Positions 1 through 10,512 of a DNA stretch of 20,000 nt are shown in pieces (positions within the stretch are counted from its first letter, which is position 1; the number at the start of each line of letters is the position of its first letter). Origin of the DNA: an uncultured virus (IMG/VR IMGVR_UViG_3300033068_001325) (Duplodnaviria > Heunggongvirae > Uroviricota > Caudoviricetes); IMG/VR virus record IMGVR_UViG_3300033068_001325; one strand, written 5' to 3'. A program made the position numbers and the translations under genes. Under the pieces are notes generated by a model. The model ran no database searches and had not been told where the DNA came from. It worked only from the letters and a program-made list of their open reading frames with translations.

Positions 1-168
1 CATGTCCAGGCGCTGCTCGATCCGGTGGCAACGAATTCCGAGCATCTTGGAATCGGCAAACCCACCGACCTGCTGCATGCGCGTGATCTCGCGCTGCTGA
101 TCGCGCACAAGCTGCTCGAGCTTCGCAATTCGCTCCTGGTCGGTCGGCGCCTTTTTCTCGTCGCCCAT
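1..168 (-). CDS. Hypothetical protein, 5' part only (runs off window); first gene after the terminator
   Basis: Read manually: ATG at 168 preceded by GAAGGG; open to position 1 (MGDEKKAPTDQERIAKLEQLVRDQQREITRMQQVGG...), coiled-coil-like heptads. Not in ORF track because no stop lies in the window. Confidence 0.65.
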   Translation of the reverse strand, partial: MGDEKKAPTDQERIAKLEQLVRDQQREITRMQQVGGFADSKMLGIRCHRIEQRLDM

Positions 169-186
169 CTGGGTTCCCAGCCCTTC

Positions 187-229
187 AAAAACGCCAACGG
201 GCCCGGGTTTCCCTCGGGCCCGCCTGGCG
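187..229 (-). terminator. Intrinsic (Rho-independent) terminator
   Basis: Minus strand CGCCAGGCGGGCCCGAGG-GAAA-CCCGGGCCCGTTGGCG followed by TTTTT: long GC stem, GAAA tetraloop, U-tract. Confidence 0.8.
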
Positions 230-264
230 GTCCATTGCCTCTTGGCGTAATACCCCCTGCGGGG

Positions 265-297
265 CTCGCACGCGCATTGAGTGTCACGGGTTGTCAA
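265..297 (-). promoter_or_regulatory. Candidate leftward (late?) promoter with perfect -35 and no clear -10
   Basis: TTGACA on minus strand at 297-292, ~60 nt upstream of the terminator; the 17-bp-spaced -10 position (CGCGTG) is non-consensus. Confidence 0.3.
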
Positions 298-310
298 AAT
301 TGCAAGCGGT

Positions 311-7146: not shown

Positions 7147-7417
7147 CCTTCGCCGCCCTTTCCAGCTCCTGCCGCTCGAGCCACTCGACCAAAGTGCAGA
7201 CATCTCGCATAGCCTGCAGCTCGCGCTGGTGCTCTTCCGCCATTCGTTTTTCCCCGCAATTCGCACCGCTGCAGGGGATAGGTTCGCCGTCTTCGTCGCG
7301 TTGCCCGCATGTCGGTGACAGGCAATTGCGCCGCGCGTAGTCCCGCAAGATGTGAACGCGATACAGCGCCCATGCGTAAATTCGATCGCGGGGGCGCTGC
7401 TCACTCAGGGATGTCAT
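7121..7417 (-). CDS. Hypothetical Cys-containing protein (98 aa)
   Basis: MTSLSEQRPRDRIYAW...CLSPTC...CSGANC...; protein-like, fills the gap between the resolvase and the 7146 start with short overlaps. Confidence 0.6.
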   Translation of the reverse strand: MTSLSEQRPRDRIYAWALYRVHILRDYARRNCLSPTCGQRDEDGEPIPCSGANCGEKRMAEEHQRELQAMRDVCTLVEWLERQELERAAKDDKQSRKR

Positions 7418-8045
7418 CGCTATCGTCAACGAACAGCCTCGCCGCCGCCCTCTCTGTTGCCCTGGTCGGCGCCGTCGGCTCGTCAAACATCTTCGGCGAA
7501 TCGATGCCGCGCTTTCCGCGAGATTTCCCCTCCGTCTCCGCATACCACGCGGCAATCAGGAAGGCCTCGGCACGCTGATGGTCTTTTTTGCGCGCGAGAA
7601 AGGGCGCAATCTGCGGATAGCGGCGAATGGCCAGCTGCCGCGCGGGCTCCTTGCCGGCATCGCCTCCGGGCAAATTGAAATGGCGCTTCCACACGGCCGG
7701 CATGACGACGTGCTGCAGCGGGATTCCGAGACACGCCACTACCGCCTTGATCGCGTACCAGCCGCCGCCGAACTTGAATGTCGACGCCACGCCCATGTCG
7801 CGACGCTCTCCGGTGCGCGGGTCCGGAATCGACGGCATCGCCATCGCACGCTCAAGCACCACAAAATCAGGCTTCAGCGCGTACAGCCGATCGCGCAGCG
7901 CAACGTAGTTGAGCTCTCGGTTTGCCTTCTCGCCCATGGTTGGCAAGTCGAAGATACCGTCAGGGGTGGTGGGGACGGTGCTATCCGGCAGGAAGAGCGC
8001 GCACGCACCCTCAATGCCAGGGTCGATCCCGACAATCCGTCGCAT
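7401..8045 (-). CDS. RuvC-like Holliday junction resolvase (phage/MOC1-type)
   Basis: IVGIDPG catalytic motif, VVLE, FKFG, P..WK..F.L, D..RAEAFLIA. Confidence 0.88.
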   Translation of the reverse strand: MRRIVGIDPGIEGACALFLPDSTVPTTPDGIFDLPTMGEKANRELNYVALRDRLYALKPDFVVLERAMAMPSIPDPRTGERRDMGVASTFKFGGGWYAIKAVVACLGIPLQHVVMPAVWKRHFNLPGGDAGKEPARQLAIRRYPQIAPFLARKKDHQRAEAFLIAAWYAETEGKSRGKRGIDSPKMFDEPTAPTRATERAAARLFVDDSDDIPE

Positions 8046-8060
8046 CTGAAACTCTCGTTG

Positions 8061-8618
8061 CTAGTGCTTGGTGTCGTCAGTTCCGCGACCGATCTGATTG
8101 AGGTTCCCCTCATCTGGCCGGGGCGAAACCCCAGCTTTGTCGGCCAAAGCCCGTACATGCTCTGAAGCACTGGCGCCAGGTTGGCGCAGATGACGCGGCC
8201 GGGGATCTTCTTCACCGTCCTCATCGAGCTCCCGTGGGGGCTCTTCAGTGCCAGCGCCGATTGGACCCGTAGGCAACAACCGACCCTGCAGGTTGGCCAG
8301 CTCGTCGAGCTTGAAATGCTTCCGATAATGATCGAAGTGCGCGAGATACTGCGCCAGCTTTTCTGCTGCGATAGACTCGTTTTTCGCAGACTTCACACCA
8401 TCATGGAGATCCTTCGCCAGCTTGAATGGCTTCGGAAGAAGATGCCCCTTCACCGCCGCTTCGCGCGACTCGCCCAACTCCTTCTTCGCGTCGTCGATCA
8501 CGTCGGATGCAGTGTCGACAGCGCTGTTGAAGGCGCGCACCGTCCCGGCGGACGGCAATCTGATTTCCTTGCCTGTGGGCTCTGCGCCGTCGGCCGTCGT
8601 GGTTTTTTTACCTGCCAT
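8061..8618 (-). CDS. Helical protein, possibly a distant GapR (DUF2312)-like nucleoid-associated protein
   Basis: First gene of the leftward operon, GGGGG SD; helix pattern IDDAKKELGESREAAVKGHLLPKPFKLAKDL...FDHYRKHFKL parallels GapR spacing; acidic/disordered tail. Confidence 0.55.
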   Translation of the reverse strand: MAGKKTTTADGAEPTGKEIRLPSAGTVRAFNSAVDTASDVIDDAKKELGESREAAVKGHLLPKPFKLAKDLHDGVKSAKNESIAAEKLAQYLAHFDHYRKHFKLDELANLQGRLLPTGPIGAGTEEPPRELDEDGEEDPRPRHLRQPGASASEHVRALADKAGVSPRPDEGNLNQIGRGTDDTKH

Positions 8619-8889
8619 GGGAACCCCCGAATTGTGTTGGCGGTCCCCGACCGCGACAATCGGGGACCGCCGTAGCCTGCAAACACCGAGCCTGGACAGA
8701 CGGCGTTGCGGCTAGCTGGAAAATTCAGGAAGGTGTCCAGGCCTTCACCGCGGAATCAGTGCCGACAAGTTGGCTGTCGATTGCCGGTTCGTCAACCGTC
8801 ATCATTTTGAACTGGAAGAAGCGGGTACGAAACTGAGAGGCGGGGACGAAGTCCCGCCCTCTACCTCCACAGACTCGGTGCTGCGCGCG
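8619..8889 (-). ncRNA. Structured 5' leader / candidate cis-regulatory RNA
   Basis: Hairpins at 8836-8862, 8729-8746, 8673-8714 and 8639-8671; G-U pairs in the last two favour the minus strand; loops CCUGGACA and UGUCCAGG are complementary. Confidence 0.5.
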
Positions 8890-8895
8890 AGGCTT

Positions 8896-8924
8896 CGCAT
8901 ACCGGTGAGGGAAAAATTCGTCAA
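8896..8924 (-). promoter_or_regulatory. Leftward sigma70-type promoter
   Basis: TTGACG (8924-8919) - 17 bp - TATGCG (8901-8896) on the minus strand. Confidence 0.6.
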
Positions 8925-8934
8925 TGCGCCGCTT

Positions 8935-8973
8935 GGGTACGCGCAGCGGGTACGCGAGCGCGAGCACGGGTAC
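8935..8973. repeat. GGGTAC(GCG) direct repeats upstream of the leftward promoter
   Basis: GGGTACGCG at 8935-8943 and 8948-8956, GGGTAC at 8968-8973; also CGGGTACG at 8822-8829. Same core as the 311-355 tandem repeat. Confidence 0.75.
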
Positions 8974-9102
8974 ATGATGCGTAAAAAACATTCGTGATTT
9001 CAATCGGTTTGTTTTTTCGTACCGGCGCGTCCAGATTTTTTATCCACCCCCTGTTGGAAACTCGCTCAACCGGGTCTTGGGGCAGCTTGGGAAAAATCAG
9101 GA

Positions 9103-9160
9103 TGGACAACTAACTAAACCCACGGTATAGCTGCTGGCGTTCCAAGCGGAAGGGAAGCCC
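9103..9160 (+). promoter_or_regulatory. Rightward promoter/operator/RBS cassette 1
   Basis: TGGACA (9103-9108) - 17 bp - TATAGC (9126-9131); palindrome CTAAACC-CAC-GGTATAG (9114-9130); GGAAGGGAAGCCC (9148-9160). Confidence 0.8.
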
Positions 9161-9162
9161 GG

Positions 9163-10512
9163 GTGAACGCACAGACACTTCACAACTTCAGCACTCCTGC
9201 GCTTCAGCGCAGCCTGCCCGACGTGGTCGCCGAGTATGATTTGAAGCTTGCCGGGATCGCAGAGGCCGAGAAGGCTTTCGAGCGTGCCGGCGACGCCCTG
9301 AAGATGGCTTGCACGGTCGGGGGCACATTCGGGGACGTCACGATCGACACTGGACGCAACTACACAAGCTCTCTGAAGCTCTGCCTATTACGTTCCGCGT
9401 GGAAGCATATTTATGAGGGCCTTCCAATCGAACGCATTGCTAGCGCGGAAGACAAACGTAAGTGGCAGACGGCTCTCGAGAAGCCTGCTCCCTTCACCCT
9501 TGAGAATATTAGGGCAACTTTCGGGAAGTATATTCTCGATCCGCGCGGCAACATCCTACGCGGACTTGCTGAGGTTTTCTGTCAACTGGATCAGGCATTC
9601 AAGAGCCACGACAAGGTCAAGATTGGCGTGAAGGGCCTACCGAAGCGCATCATTGTCGGCAGTGTTGGAGGTTGGGGTTCATACGGTCGCGACAAGCTGC
9701 GCGATATGTTCAATGCGCTGGCTGCATACCAGGGAAAGCCACTTATCGACCACAAGGAATTTACCGAACTCGATGCGATGCACACCGGCTTCGGACACAA
9801 GTCCGGCGTGGTGACGATACGCGGCATCACCGTGAAGAAGTATCAGAACGGCAATGCGCACGTCATGTTCGACAATCGGTCGCTACGCGACGTCAACAAG
9901 GCGCTTGCCGAATTCTACGGCGACGTGCTGCCCGACACCACTGATGAAAAGCCCGCGAAGCCGAAGGCCTCGACGGCCGTTGCCAAGGATCTGCAGTTTT
10001 ACGCCACGCCGGCAAAACTGGCGCATGACATCATTAGCCATCGCTTCAGCTGCCAGGGCCTAGCCGGCAAGCGCGTTCTCGAGCCGAGCTGCGGAGATGG
10101 TCGCCTGATGGAGGCGCTGAGAGAACATGGAGCCACCAATATCTTCGGCGTCGAGGTTGACGCCGGGCGAGCAGCACAGGCGCGCGCCAAGGGATTCCGG
10201 GTGCTGCTAGGAAACTTCCTCGAAACCGCTTTCGATCACGCCTTCGACGTCATTGCCATGAACCCGCCGTTCTATGGCAAGCATTATGCGAAGCACGTTT
10301 TACACGCATGGTCGCTGCTGGCGCCCGGCGGCACTTTGATTGCCATTCTGCCGGCGACGGCGCGCTACGACCATGGCCTGCTCGACGAATTGGTGAAGAG
10401 CGCTTCGCATCGCTACAGCTGGCCGTGGGACGACTTGCCGGTGGGGTCGTTCAGCGAAAGCGGCACCAACATCAACACCACCGTTCTGACCTTACACAAG
10501 CTGAAAGGGTAG
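9163..10512 (+). CDS. DUF4942-like domain fused to a C-terminal N6-adenine DNA methyltransferase
   Basis: C-term FYATP, VLEPSCGDG (SAM binding), MNPPF (catalytic), LIAILP, FSESGTNINT; N-term PF...NI.ATF...KRII...KKYQNGNAHV.F...VNKALAEFYG resembles DUF4942. Confidence 0.85.
   Translation: MNAQTLHNFSTPALQRSLPDVVAEYDLKLAGIAEAEKAFERAGDALKMACTVGGTFGDVTIDTGRNYTSSLKLCLLRSAWKHIYEGLPIERIASAEDKRKWQTALEKPAPFTLENIRATFGKYILDPRGNILRGLAEVFCQLDQAFKSHDKVKIGVKGLPKRIIVGSVGGWGSYGRDKLRDMFNALAAYQGKPLIDHKEFTELDAMHTGFGHKSGVVTIRGITVKKYQNGNAHVMFDNRSLRDVNKALAEFYGDVLPDTTDEKPAKPKASTAVAKDLQFYATPAKLAHDIISHRFSCQGLAGKRVLEPSCGDGRLMEALREHGATNIFGVEVDAGRAAQARAKGFRVLLGNFLETAFDHAFDVIAMNPPFYGKHYAKHVLHAWSLLAPGGTLIAILPATARYDHGLLDELVKSASHRYSWPWDDLPVGSFSESGTNINTTVLTLHKLKG

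Follow-up and report, generated by a model that had tools for sequence, protein, structure and literature searches.

How might a phage set the expression of its replication genes through the folded 5' end of their own messenger RNA? The question is raised by a locus in a 20,000-nucleotide (nt) stretch of DNA, here called the window, which is part of a 76-kb metagenomic contig of an uncultured virus of the Caudoviricetes (IMG/VR record IMGVR_UViG_3300033068_001325). On the minus strand of the window (the strand meant throughout, unless the plus strand is named), directly ahead of an operon of replication and recombination genes, lies a segment (8619–8924) in which a first-pass annotation, made from the letters of the window, had seen an undescribed structured RNA leader with two hairpin loops, B and C, that are complementary to each other. 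In other words, is this segment conserved as an RNA, is the complementarity of its loops kept by evolution, and what could such a contact do? Our answers are of unequal strength. Comparison with relatives confirms that the stretch is an evolutionarily conserved structured RNA leader before the DNA-replication genes of uncultivated phages, and it supports the view that, in a main clade of ten leaders, the loops of B and C stay complementary through compensatory change. As to function, we put at about an even chance the reading that 8619–8924 is a cis-acting untranslated leader of the operon, in which a kissing-loop or pseudoknot contact sets expression.

A conserved leader with two complementary loops

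Thirteen distinct full leaders were compared, those of the window and of the loci that we call L003, L004, L005, L006, L007, L009, L011, L013, L017, L159, L170 and L172; they were gathered by protein-guided and pattern-guided scans, come from metagenomic phage contigs, and precede first-gene proteins that are ~30–70% identical. The elements of 11 of the 13 follow one another in a single order: boxes of the GTACCC kind, a TTGAC hexamer, the motif YYTCGCGCGCGGC, hairpin A, a further box, a second TTGAC hexamer, UGAUUC, hairpins B, C and D, and the Shine-Dalgarno (SD) sequence of the first gene. L170 and L172 are without UGAUUC and without the GAAGG/CCUUC stem of B. In the window, every hairpin that the first-pass annotation had drawn, as well as the SD, was found in the sequence where it had been placed. 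Hairpin B (8729–8746) carries the loop CCUGGACA (8741–8734) between GAAGG (8746–8742) and CCUUC (8733–8729). Hairpin C (8673–8714) closes a 12-nt loop, UCUGUCCAGGCU (8700–8689), with a stem of 14 pairs that two bulges interrupt. Hairpin D (8639–8671), set off from C by a single nucleotide on its 5' side and from the SD (GGGGG, 8628–8624) by 10 nt on its 3' side, is built on a 12-nt perfect inverted repeat (I1) and reaches 15 pairs with G-U, just as had been proposed.

Taken as a 296-nt unit, the leader folds at -123.1 kcal/mol, as against -106.0 +/- 5.3 in 200 dinucleotide shuffles (z = -3.2), none of which matched its stability. A covariance search of 8000–9600 with the 4227 models of Rfam 15, riboswitches included, gave at E<=10 just two chance-level hits, each below the threshold of its family: Actino-pnp on hairpin D (21.5 bits, gathering 47.7) and mir-7398 on hairpin A (20.4, gathering 44). 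The open reading frames (ORFs) within the leader (92, 57 and 62 amino acids, aa) are not conserved among relatives, and the longest closed ORF in the sense direction within 420-nt upstream regions, between 19 and 95 aa depending on the locus, is likewise unconserved. Among five related phage genomes (G001–G005), a model of the leader matched once per genome, strongly or in the right place, in G001–G003 (E 1e-22 to 0.03); in G004 and G005 its only matches were weak ones elsewhere (E 0.5 and 0.13). The view of the first-pass annotation that this is an undescribed structured leader of the replication operon is supported, and the leader is conserved.

How far does the complementarity of B and C reach, and how often would chance provide it? 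The 8 nt first reported hold and extend to nine Watson-Crick pairs at 100% (8742–8734 with 8698–8690, inverted repeat I5), ten with a terminal G-U; the B arm of this long-range helix is GGCCUGGACA (8743–8734), and the c arm, UGUCCAGGCU (8698–8689), directly adjoins the 3' arm of the C stem, as it does with a gap of 0 in 9 of 12 loci. The elements were defined by an objective procedure, independent of the earlier proposal, which took D to be the best hairpin before the SD, searched the 62 nt on its 5' side for the best hairpin with an 8–24-nt loop (C), and then searched the 70 nt on the 5' side of C for the stretch that best complements the C loop (B). This gave a helix of 6–11 base pairs (bp) in 12/12 loci, and a control region 70 nt further upstream gave 3–7 bp only. 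When the 70-nt region was shuffled 5000 times per locus, the observed helix was matched by 10, 2, 21, 61, 4, 36, 3, 4, 3, 105, 423 and 358 shuffles (for the window alone, an equally good helix to the C loop arose in 10), which combine to a Fisher p of 1.2e-16 over the 12 loci and of 5.4e-13 over 10, with two loci that share the helix of L006 dropped. A first shuffle test, superseded by this procedure, was weak (Fisher p = 4e-5); its RNAfold-defined C loops had shrunk to 4–9 nt, and to 4–6 nt in 10 of the 12 loci, through tiny inner stems. An ungapped helix scan from the GATTC motif to the ATG ranked B:C second after D in eight of ten leaders and fifth in L004 and L005.

What changes from leader to leader is the sequence of the helix. 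It reads GGCCUGGACA in the window, AAGCCUUGGCA in L003, GGCUCGUCAC in L006, L009 and L013, GGUUGCGC in L007, AGGUUGGGC in L011, GGUUAGGC in L017, GAUGGGG in L005 and GAUAGG in L004, and single-position compensation can be followed among L007, L011 and L017, where GGUUGCGC, GGUUGGGC and GGUUAGGC stand against GCGCAACC, GCCCAACC and GCCUAACC. A covariance model with B:C as its sole structure recovered the window (E = 3e-6), L017 and L011. In an alignment of six leaders, 98.3% of the B:C cells are paired, compared with 80.8% in shuffles, and covariation scores 0.553 where shuffles give 0.193 (0/500 for both); five of the ten pairs vary in both partners, and controls in which the pairing was slid are 8–50% paired. 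Covariation and conservation were what the first-pass annotation had proposed as a check on the loop complementarity, and within the main clade compensatory change does maintain it. The alternative pairing that it had suggested, of GCGGU upstream of B with GCCGC in the 5' arm of C, fared differently: it amounts to 5 bp only, and no conservation of it was found. L004 and L005 have a different alternative helix, of 9 bp, between the region before UGAUUC and the C 5' arm.

The local stems tell a similar story. Across ten leaders the B and C stems together are 93.9% paired (80.6% when shuffled), with 10 of 16 pairs changing on both sides and a covariation score of 0.418 as against 0.199 (0/500 shuffles); a B+C stem model, iterated once, located ten leaders correctly (E 5e-23 to 0.022) and missed L003, L159, L170 and L172. 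Most of the change lies in C, where both partners vary in 8 of 11 pairs and 93% of cells pair; the figures for B are 2 of 5 and 95%. D is the best hairpin before the SD in 12/12 loci and has a different sequence in each, and by eye, unscored, the stems of D and A differ at every locus at constant position. Of the 171 pairs in C, 21 are G-U, as are 19 of the 198 in D, whereas A.C 1x1 mismatches number one and two, and D is more stable in the sense strand than as its reverse complement in 9/12 loci, in a strand comparison of C and D that misassigned C in three loci. General alignment was of little help here: MAFFT with RNAalifold misaligned the arms both of the D hairpins, where it predicted six pairs, and of the B-to-C segments, where it predicted none, and the MAFFT alignments A2–A5 did not respect structure.

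Two observations belong beside the helix. A third copy of the B-arm 9-mer, GCCUGGACA, lies at 11–3, oriented like B and some 52 codons inside the ORF that belongs to the next operon; because a complete 63.7-kb relative has the 9-mer at B and C only, with no third copy, we take it as chance. And in an incomplete leader (L016, 1–127), the C loop UGUCCAGCC is one substitution away from that of the window; the contig stops before the B element, which puts any compensating change beyond its reach.

The sample itself needs a word. DNA was obtained for fewer than the 74 homologues that a large protein collection holds of the first-gene protein. Duplicates and near-duplicates (L001/L002, L010, L012, L014/L015, L018, L078, L083, L141, L143, L153, L164, L171 and L173–L177) were dropped. 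A stricter pattern scan of IMG/VR returned 30 stretches, two of them new family members, and the matches listed by a loose scan were mostly chance. L019 and L020, from bacterial metagenome-assembled genomes, were rejected as spurious 24–26-aa matches inside a long frame that resembles an unrelated enzyme gene. One relative with a first-gene protein 29% identical (L008) has a leader of ~85 nt without these hairpins. Of the sequencing runs listed as containing the stretch none is an RNA run, and contigs from four DNA runs are identical to the window over 8560–9010, with zero micro-variation.

Boxes, putative promoters and neighbouring genes

Where would transcription of such a leader begin? The TTGACG-17-TATGCG pattern on which the first-pass annotation had relied is present in the sequence as a putative promoter, P1 (8896–8924; TTGACG 8924–8919, 17-nt spacer, TATGCG 8901–8896). 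A TTGAY hexamer stands 309–376 nt ahead of the ATG in 13/13 loci, and at the predicted P1 start lies the motif CCTCGCGCGC (8883–8892; family consensus YYTCGCGCGCGGC), which can be found by eye in all loci. About 130 nt further downstream there is a second putative promoter, P2 (8767–8795; TTGACG 8795–8790, 17-nt spacer, CAACTT 8772–8767), and TTGACGAA occurs at both (direct repeat D5). The 3' end of the second TTGAY hexamer is 32–37 nt upstream of GATTC in 11/11 loci having GATTC; L170 and L172, which are without it, have TTGACT at a similar place, and in relatives CAWTNT-like hexamers follow 17 nt after the second TTGAY. From its position and composition, the second hexamer pair looks like a second promoter, whose transcript would start just before UGAUUCC. 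Since P2 lies inside the leader, hairpin A may not share a transcript with B, C and D, or may be present only on a longer one. This corrects the idea of one ~270-nt leader, which holds a second conserved promoter-like element within it.

Just upstream of the P1 -35 are three direct GTACCC boxes (8935–8974; TGTACCC 8974–8968, CGTACCC 8954–8948 and 8941–8935; direct repeats D1 and D3), and the P1 -10 region overlaps an inverted GGTA(C/T)G box. CGTACCC occurs seven times in the window, where 0.71 are expected, and none of 200 shuffles reaches seven; relatives have three to five direct boxes ahead of the first TTGAC. To us the boxes look like operator or activator sites for a DNA-binding protein. 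Variants exist, GTAACC in L006 and L013 and GTCACC in L170 and L172, which looks as though the operator varied together with the protein that binds it. The CGTACCC boxes of the window form two clusters 8.6 kb apart, at 316–346 and 8823–8974, each adjoining the upstream side of a promoter-like site, and in G001–G005 they also gather at two places, mostly 8–14 kb apart (~10.5 kb in G005 only if the record is circular). The second box-controlled promoter region of the window (160–300) has a strong hairpin with a U run (GCCAGGCGGGCCCG..CCCGGGCCCGUUGGC UUUUU) before an SD and an ATG at 167; this leader resembles an attenuator or a small-RNA 3' end.

Between P1 and P2 lies hairpin A (8836–8862), whose 5' arm is rich in purines and whose 3' arm is rich in pyrimidines, with UUCG in the loop between them. 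It is part of the minimum free energy (MFE) fold, is followed by CAGUUUCG and another CGTACCC box (8829–8823), and keeps its position in 12/12 loci examined with differing stem sequences; its 12-nt tail has just 1–6 T and hence no canonical U tract. In L004, L005, L007, L170 and L172, the 5' motif UCGCGCGCGG recurs as CCGCGCGCGA ~90–110 nt downstream, in the P1–P2 interval, on the far side of hairpin A and of a CUACAG-like motif. A domain of ~100 nt could be closed by the pair; the sequence is self-complementary, so complementarity alone is uninformative. At the predicted 5' end of the P2 transcript, local folds give a small hairpin, Z (8746–8761; CACUG and CGGUG around AUUCCG), whose stem is variable and which carries the conserved UGAUUCC (8758–8752; GATTC in 11/13 loci). 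An A/U-rich single-stranded linker, CUGAAUUUUCCAGC (8715–8728), joins B to C. Its pattern, (A)AUUC(A)C..A(G/A)UUGCUGCG, runs into the 5' arm of C and is kept even in L170 and L172 (by eye, in alignment), and the linker may be a binding site for a protein or nuclease.

The gene that the leader precedes (8061–8618, AUG 8618–8616) encodes a 185-aa protein of unknown family, helical over residues 24–113 and ending in a disordered tail with an RPRHLRQPGAS motif. Its unnamed family combines the helical core with an invariant C-terminal R-P-x-x-L-x-Q-P-G-A-S; the distant forms in L159, L170 and L172 retain the C-terminal motif and synteny with the next gene of the operon, which encodes a RuvC-like resolvase (7401–8045). 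No Pfam or PHROG family matched the protein, and a Foldseek search of the PDB and BFVD libraries with its AlphaFold2 model (predicted local distance difference test 70.5) gave nothing at E<=0.001. Collections of phages and plasmids gave no blastn or tblastn match to the region or the protein. Leftward beyond the RuvC-like gene follow a 423-aa unknown protein, an MT-A70 methyltransferase and an 834-aa primase/helicase whose cultured-phage relatives are just 26–33% identical. Divergently, on the plus strand, are genes for a DUF4942 DNA methyltransferase, an SbcC-like ATPase, an exonuclease VIII-like protein, RecT and a Dda-like helicase. The first-pass annotation had thought this a place where a cI/cro switch would be expected, a setting that finds no support here, the divergent gene being that of the methyltransferase.

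What the contact might do

How, then, could a loop–loop contact matter to the operon? In the reading that we favor, the leader would act as an RNA on its own transcript. The B:C contact would compact the P2 leader into a domain directly 5' of D and the ribosome-binding site (RBS), and this fold would set the expression of the first gene, and hence of the operon, through translation initiation, through mRNA processing or stability, or through both. Geometry adds a complication. In kissing complexes and pseudoknots of A-form geometry, ~6–8 pairs can form with both stems closed. The full 10-bp helix recruits the two final G residues of the B stem and leaves only two nucleotides of the 12-nt C loop free, and its outer pairs, which covary as well, would need partial melting of the stems or pairing between two molecules. 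Because the 10-bp helix is probably incompatible with full B and C stems, the leader likely alternates between a state of separate hairpins and a state in which B and C are paired. The balance might be shifted by a protein, by another copy of the leader or by the longer transcript from P1.

Several points weigh against this reading, and we gather them here. The helix is weak in L159 (423/5000) and L170 (358/5000) and, in L172, which was added later, insignificant (1199 or 2514 of 5000 shuffles), and for this reason we restrict the B:C claim to the main clade of ten leaders; in L170 and L172, moreover, the best B candidate lies at or ahead of the predicted P2 start. The B:C and B+C-stem alignments were fitted to the structures tested on them, three rows of the six-row B:C alignment share one helix, and the B stem is mostly conserved in sequence, which leaves it little covariation. 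The MFE of the leader is better in the sense than in the antisense strand in 6/12 loci only, that is, without strand bias. Pairing of the SD with a pyrimidine stretch next to B was not above chance (Fisher p = 0.09), and blocking the B arm in silico changed SD accessibility inconsistently. Finally, the promoters, the transcription starts and the RNA itself are things that we infer from sequence.

Two simpler forms of control can be set beside these points. MFE folds pair a segment in or near the B region with the SD region in 7/11 loci, the picture expected of an anti-SD switch; shuffles match the best such helix in most loci, L004 alone standing out (19/3000), and with an SD pairing within chance and an inconsistent shift in accessibility, these tests do not support that switch. 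A link of the leader to translation is thus only a proposal. For an attenuator that works by intrinsic termination no terminator is evident: D is followed by AACACAAUUCGGGGG, with tails similarly U-poor in relatives, B is flagged as terminator-like in the window and loses its U-rich tail in relatives, and by eye no U tract is conserved in relatives after B, C or D. We also considered D, a 12-bp stem followed by A(A/C)C, as a tRNA-like element or RNase P substrate and rejected it, ARAGORN having found no tRNA or tmRNA in the window.

Might the pairing take place between molecules? The first-pass annotation had pointed to the immunity RNAs of P4 (CI) and P1 (C4), and control of that kind, in trans as well as in cis, would have C, alone or with D, excised as a stable small RNA whose loop pairs with B of other leaders and turns the replication operon off by premature termination or a translational block; the variable B and C sequences would then be determinants of specificity (heteroimmunity). 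Like the P4 and P1 systems, this leader has complementary elements, the B and c arms, in one leader upstream of the operon; the layout resembles that of P4; the operon here, too, encodes a primase/helicase; the flanks are conserved and the paired core differs among relatives; and the helix fills all but 1–2 nt of the C loop in 8/12 loci, which would be easier between two molecules. We nevertheless think it rather unlikely. The covariance model of the Rfam C4 antisense family, which covers P1 C4 and P4 CI, was unmatched at E<=10, where the two chance-level hairpin hits were the only ones to any Rfam model, relatives have no terminator-like U tract after B, C or D, and the complete 63.7-kb relative holds no further target site. 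Since the D and A stems are by eye equally variable, variability of B:C need not mean selection for specificity. Neither a tyrosine integrase (PF00589) nor a serine recombinase (PF00239) was found in any of the five related genomes, which are 90–100% complete; G004 has direct terminal repeats, and ParB_N domains occur only within ORFs of 520–780 aa. A lysogenic state that would need immunity is therefore not evident in the relatives, though a plasmid prophage is possible. A bolder form of the same thought is that B and C make up a module for RNA–RNA self-recognition, in which leaders, or processed C, would pair in trans through a phage-specific code of 8–11 nt and throttle the replication operon, the concentration of leaders reporting genome copy number or co-infection by kin. 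Neither a protein repressor next to the operon nor an integrase is evident in this phage group. If true, this would be P4/P1-style RNA immunity, or copy control like that of plasmid antisense RNAs, from a single sense transcript and in large, apparently non-integrating phages; we judge it distinctly unlikely.

The tandem putative promoters suggest another arrangement, which strikes us as quite improbable: P1 transcripts would either end after A, as a ~65-nt RNA with a single-stranded 5' seed, or read through, and their P1-specific 5' segment would pair with C and remodel the B/C/D fold of P2 transcripts, so that a protein bound to the GTACCC boxes and controlling P1 would indirectly control translation of the operon. 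Just 5' of A, AGCACCGAGUCUG (8870–8882) is indeed complementary to CAGGCUCGGUGUU (8682–8694; the c arm and the 3' arm of C) over 13 pairs including G-U, a helix that 4 of 2000 shuffles match and that appears both in the MFE fold and as inverted repeat I3; a conserved GCGCGCGGC(A/G) in L009 and L006 pairs with the C 5' arm over 10 bp (matched by 50 and 319 of 2000), the Fisher p over 12 loci is 0.008, and hairpin A with its pyrimidine-rich tail resembles a small-RNA 3' end. Against this, two of the 12 loci fall below 0.05 individually, the partner segment varies by locus and the match is mostly between two sequence-conserved GC-rich motifs, which leaves zero covariation, and with 1–6 T in the 12 nt after it, A would be a poor intrinsic terminator. 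Or the signal might lie in the DNA, with repeats that fold when single-stranded, as an origin or priming signal, or that bind protein. Replication genes adjoin the element, the folding energy of the whole leader is equal on both strands, and the GTACCC boxes are clear signals at the DNA level; the hairpins, however, have a promoter-like element of conserved position on one side and the first gene's SD on the other, C and D read in the mRNA sense hold 40 G-U pairs to 3 A.C mismatches, and the helix sequences vary freely with complementarity kept, which fits base pairing and not a protein recognition site. We regard a DNA-level element as very improbable and return to the cis-acting leader for the comparison that follows.

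Precedents among phages and plasmids

What kind of RNA would this be? We assign the leader to a new RNA family of a known general kind, the structured leader with a long-range loop contact. Searches of titles and abstracts found no described equivalent, which is not proof of absence. Phage leaders with a proven long-range loop contact are rare, and P4 CI, P1 c4 and the plasmid repZ pseudoknots each showed a distinct way in which RNA can control replication genes. Here the element lies outside Rfam, has clear covariation and precedes the replication/recombination operon of a clade of 64–95-kb phages known from metagenomes only, with a second unexplained layer in the boxes (GTACCC, GTAACC or GTCACC) that stand in arrays at two promoters of each genome. 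It is a candidate new RNA family for annotation and a compact system, testable by synthesis, that could show how uncultivated phages time or limit the expression of their replication genes.

The mRNA leader of T4 gene 32 contains an autoregulatory pseudoknot operator. There, as here, the first gene of a phage unit for DNA metabolism has a conserved tertiary RNA fold ahead of its RBS; the difference is that the 185-aa protein, with no family and no fold match, has no sign of nucleic-acid binding.

The immunity region of satellite phage P4 has tandem promoters upstream. Its seqA, seqC and CI elements offer the likeness of an untranslated leader before replication genes that include a primase/helicase, with short complementary elements in that same leader. 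In P4, CI RNA is processed from the untranslated leader, pairs with complementary sites in it and stops expression of the replication genes (PMC4825925). The present leader differs in having no match to the Rfam C4/CI family, two complementary elements where P4 has three, no evident terminator downstream and relatives with no sign of lysogeny, and for it the processing of a small RNA is only hypothetical. The c4 RNA of P1 and P7 (immI) is alike in that its recognition sequences are presented in loops, which serve heteroimmunity, and in that compensatory variation defines specificity among related phages (PMC12197685). The c4 targets overlap the RBS of the regulated gene, whereas here both hairpins stop short of the SD, C by 45 nt and B by 101 nt; a match to Rfam is again lacking.

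That leaves the plasmids. The repZ (repA) leader of IncI1 and IncB forms a long-range pseudoknot that activates translation and that an antisense RNA blocks. It comes with a leader peptide, and the antisense RNA is encoded in cis, whereas the present leader has no conserved leader ORF and a consensus scan, the only one made, found no promoter-like sites on the plus strand over 8000–9700. The distal partner of the repZ loop adjoins the rep RBS; here the c arm is in the C loop, 61 nt upstream of the SD, with D between. What the two have in common is the heart of the matter: ahead of replication genes, a loop presented by a leader hairpin has a distant complementary partner in the same mRNA, a pairing that in repZ controls translation (PMC8053102). 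By this comparison, the plasmid repZ pseudoknot is the nearest cis-acting precedent for what the B and C loops may do.

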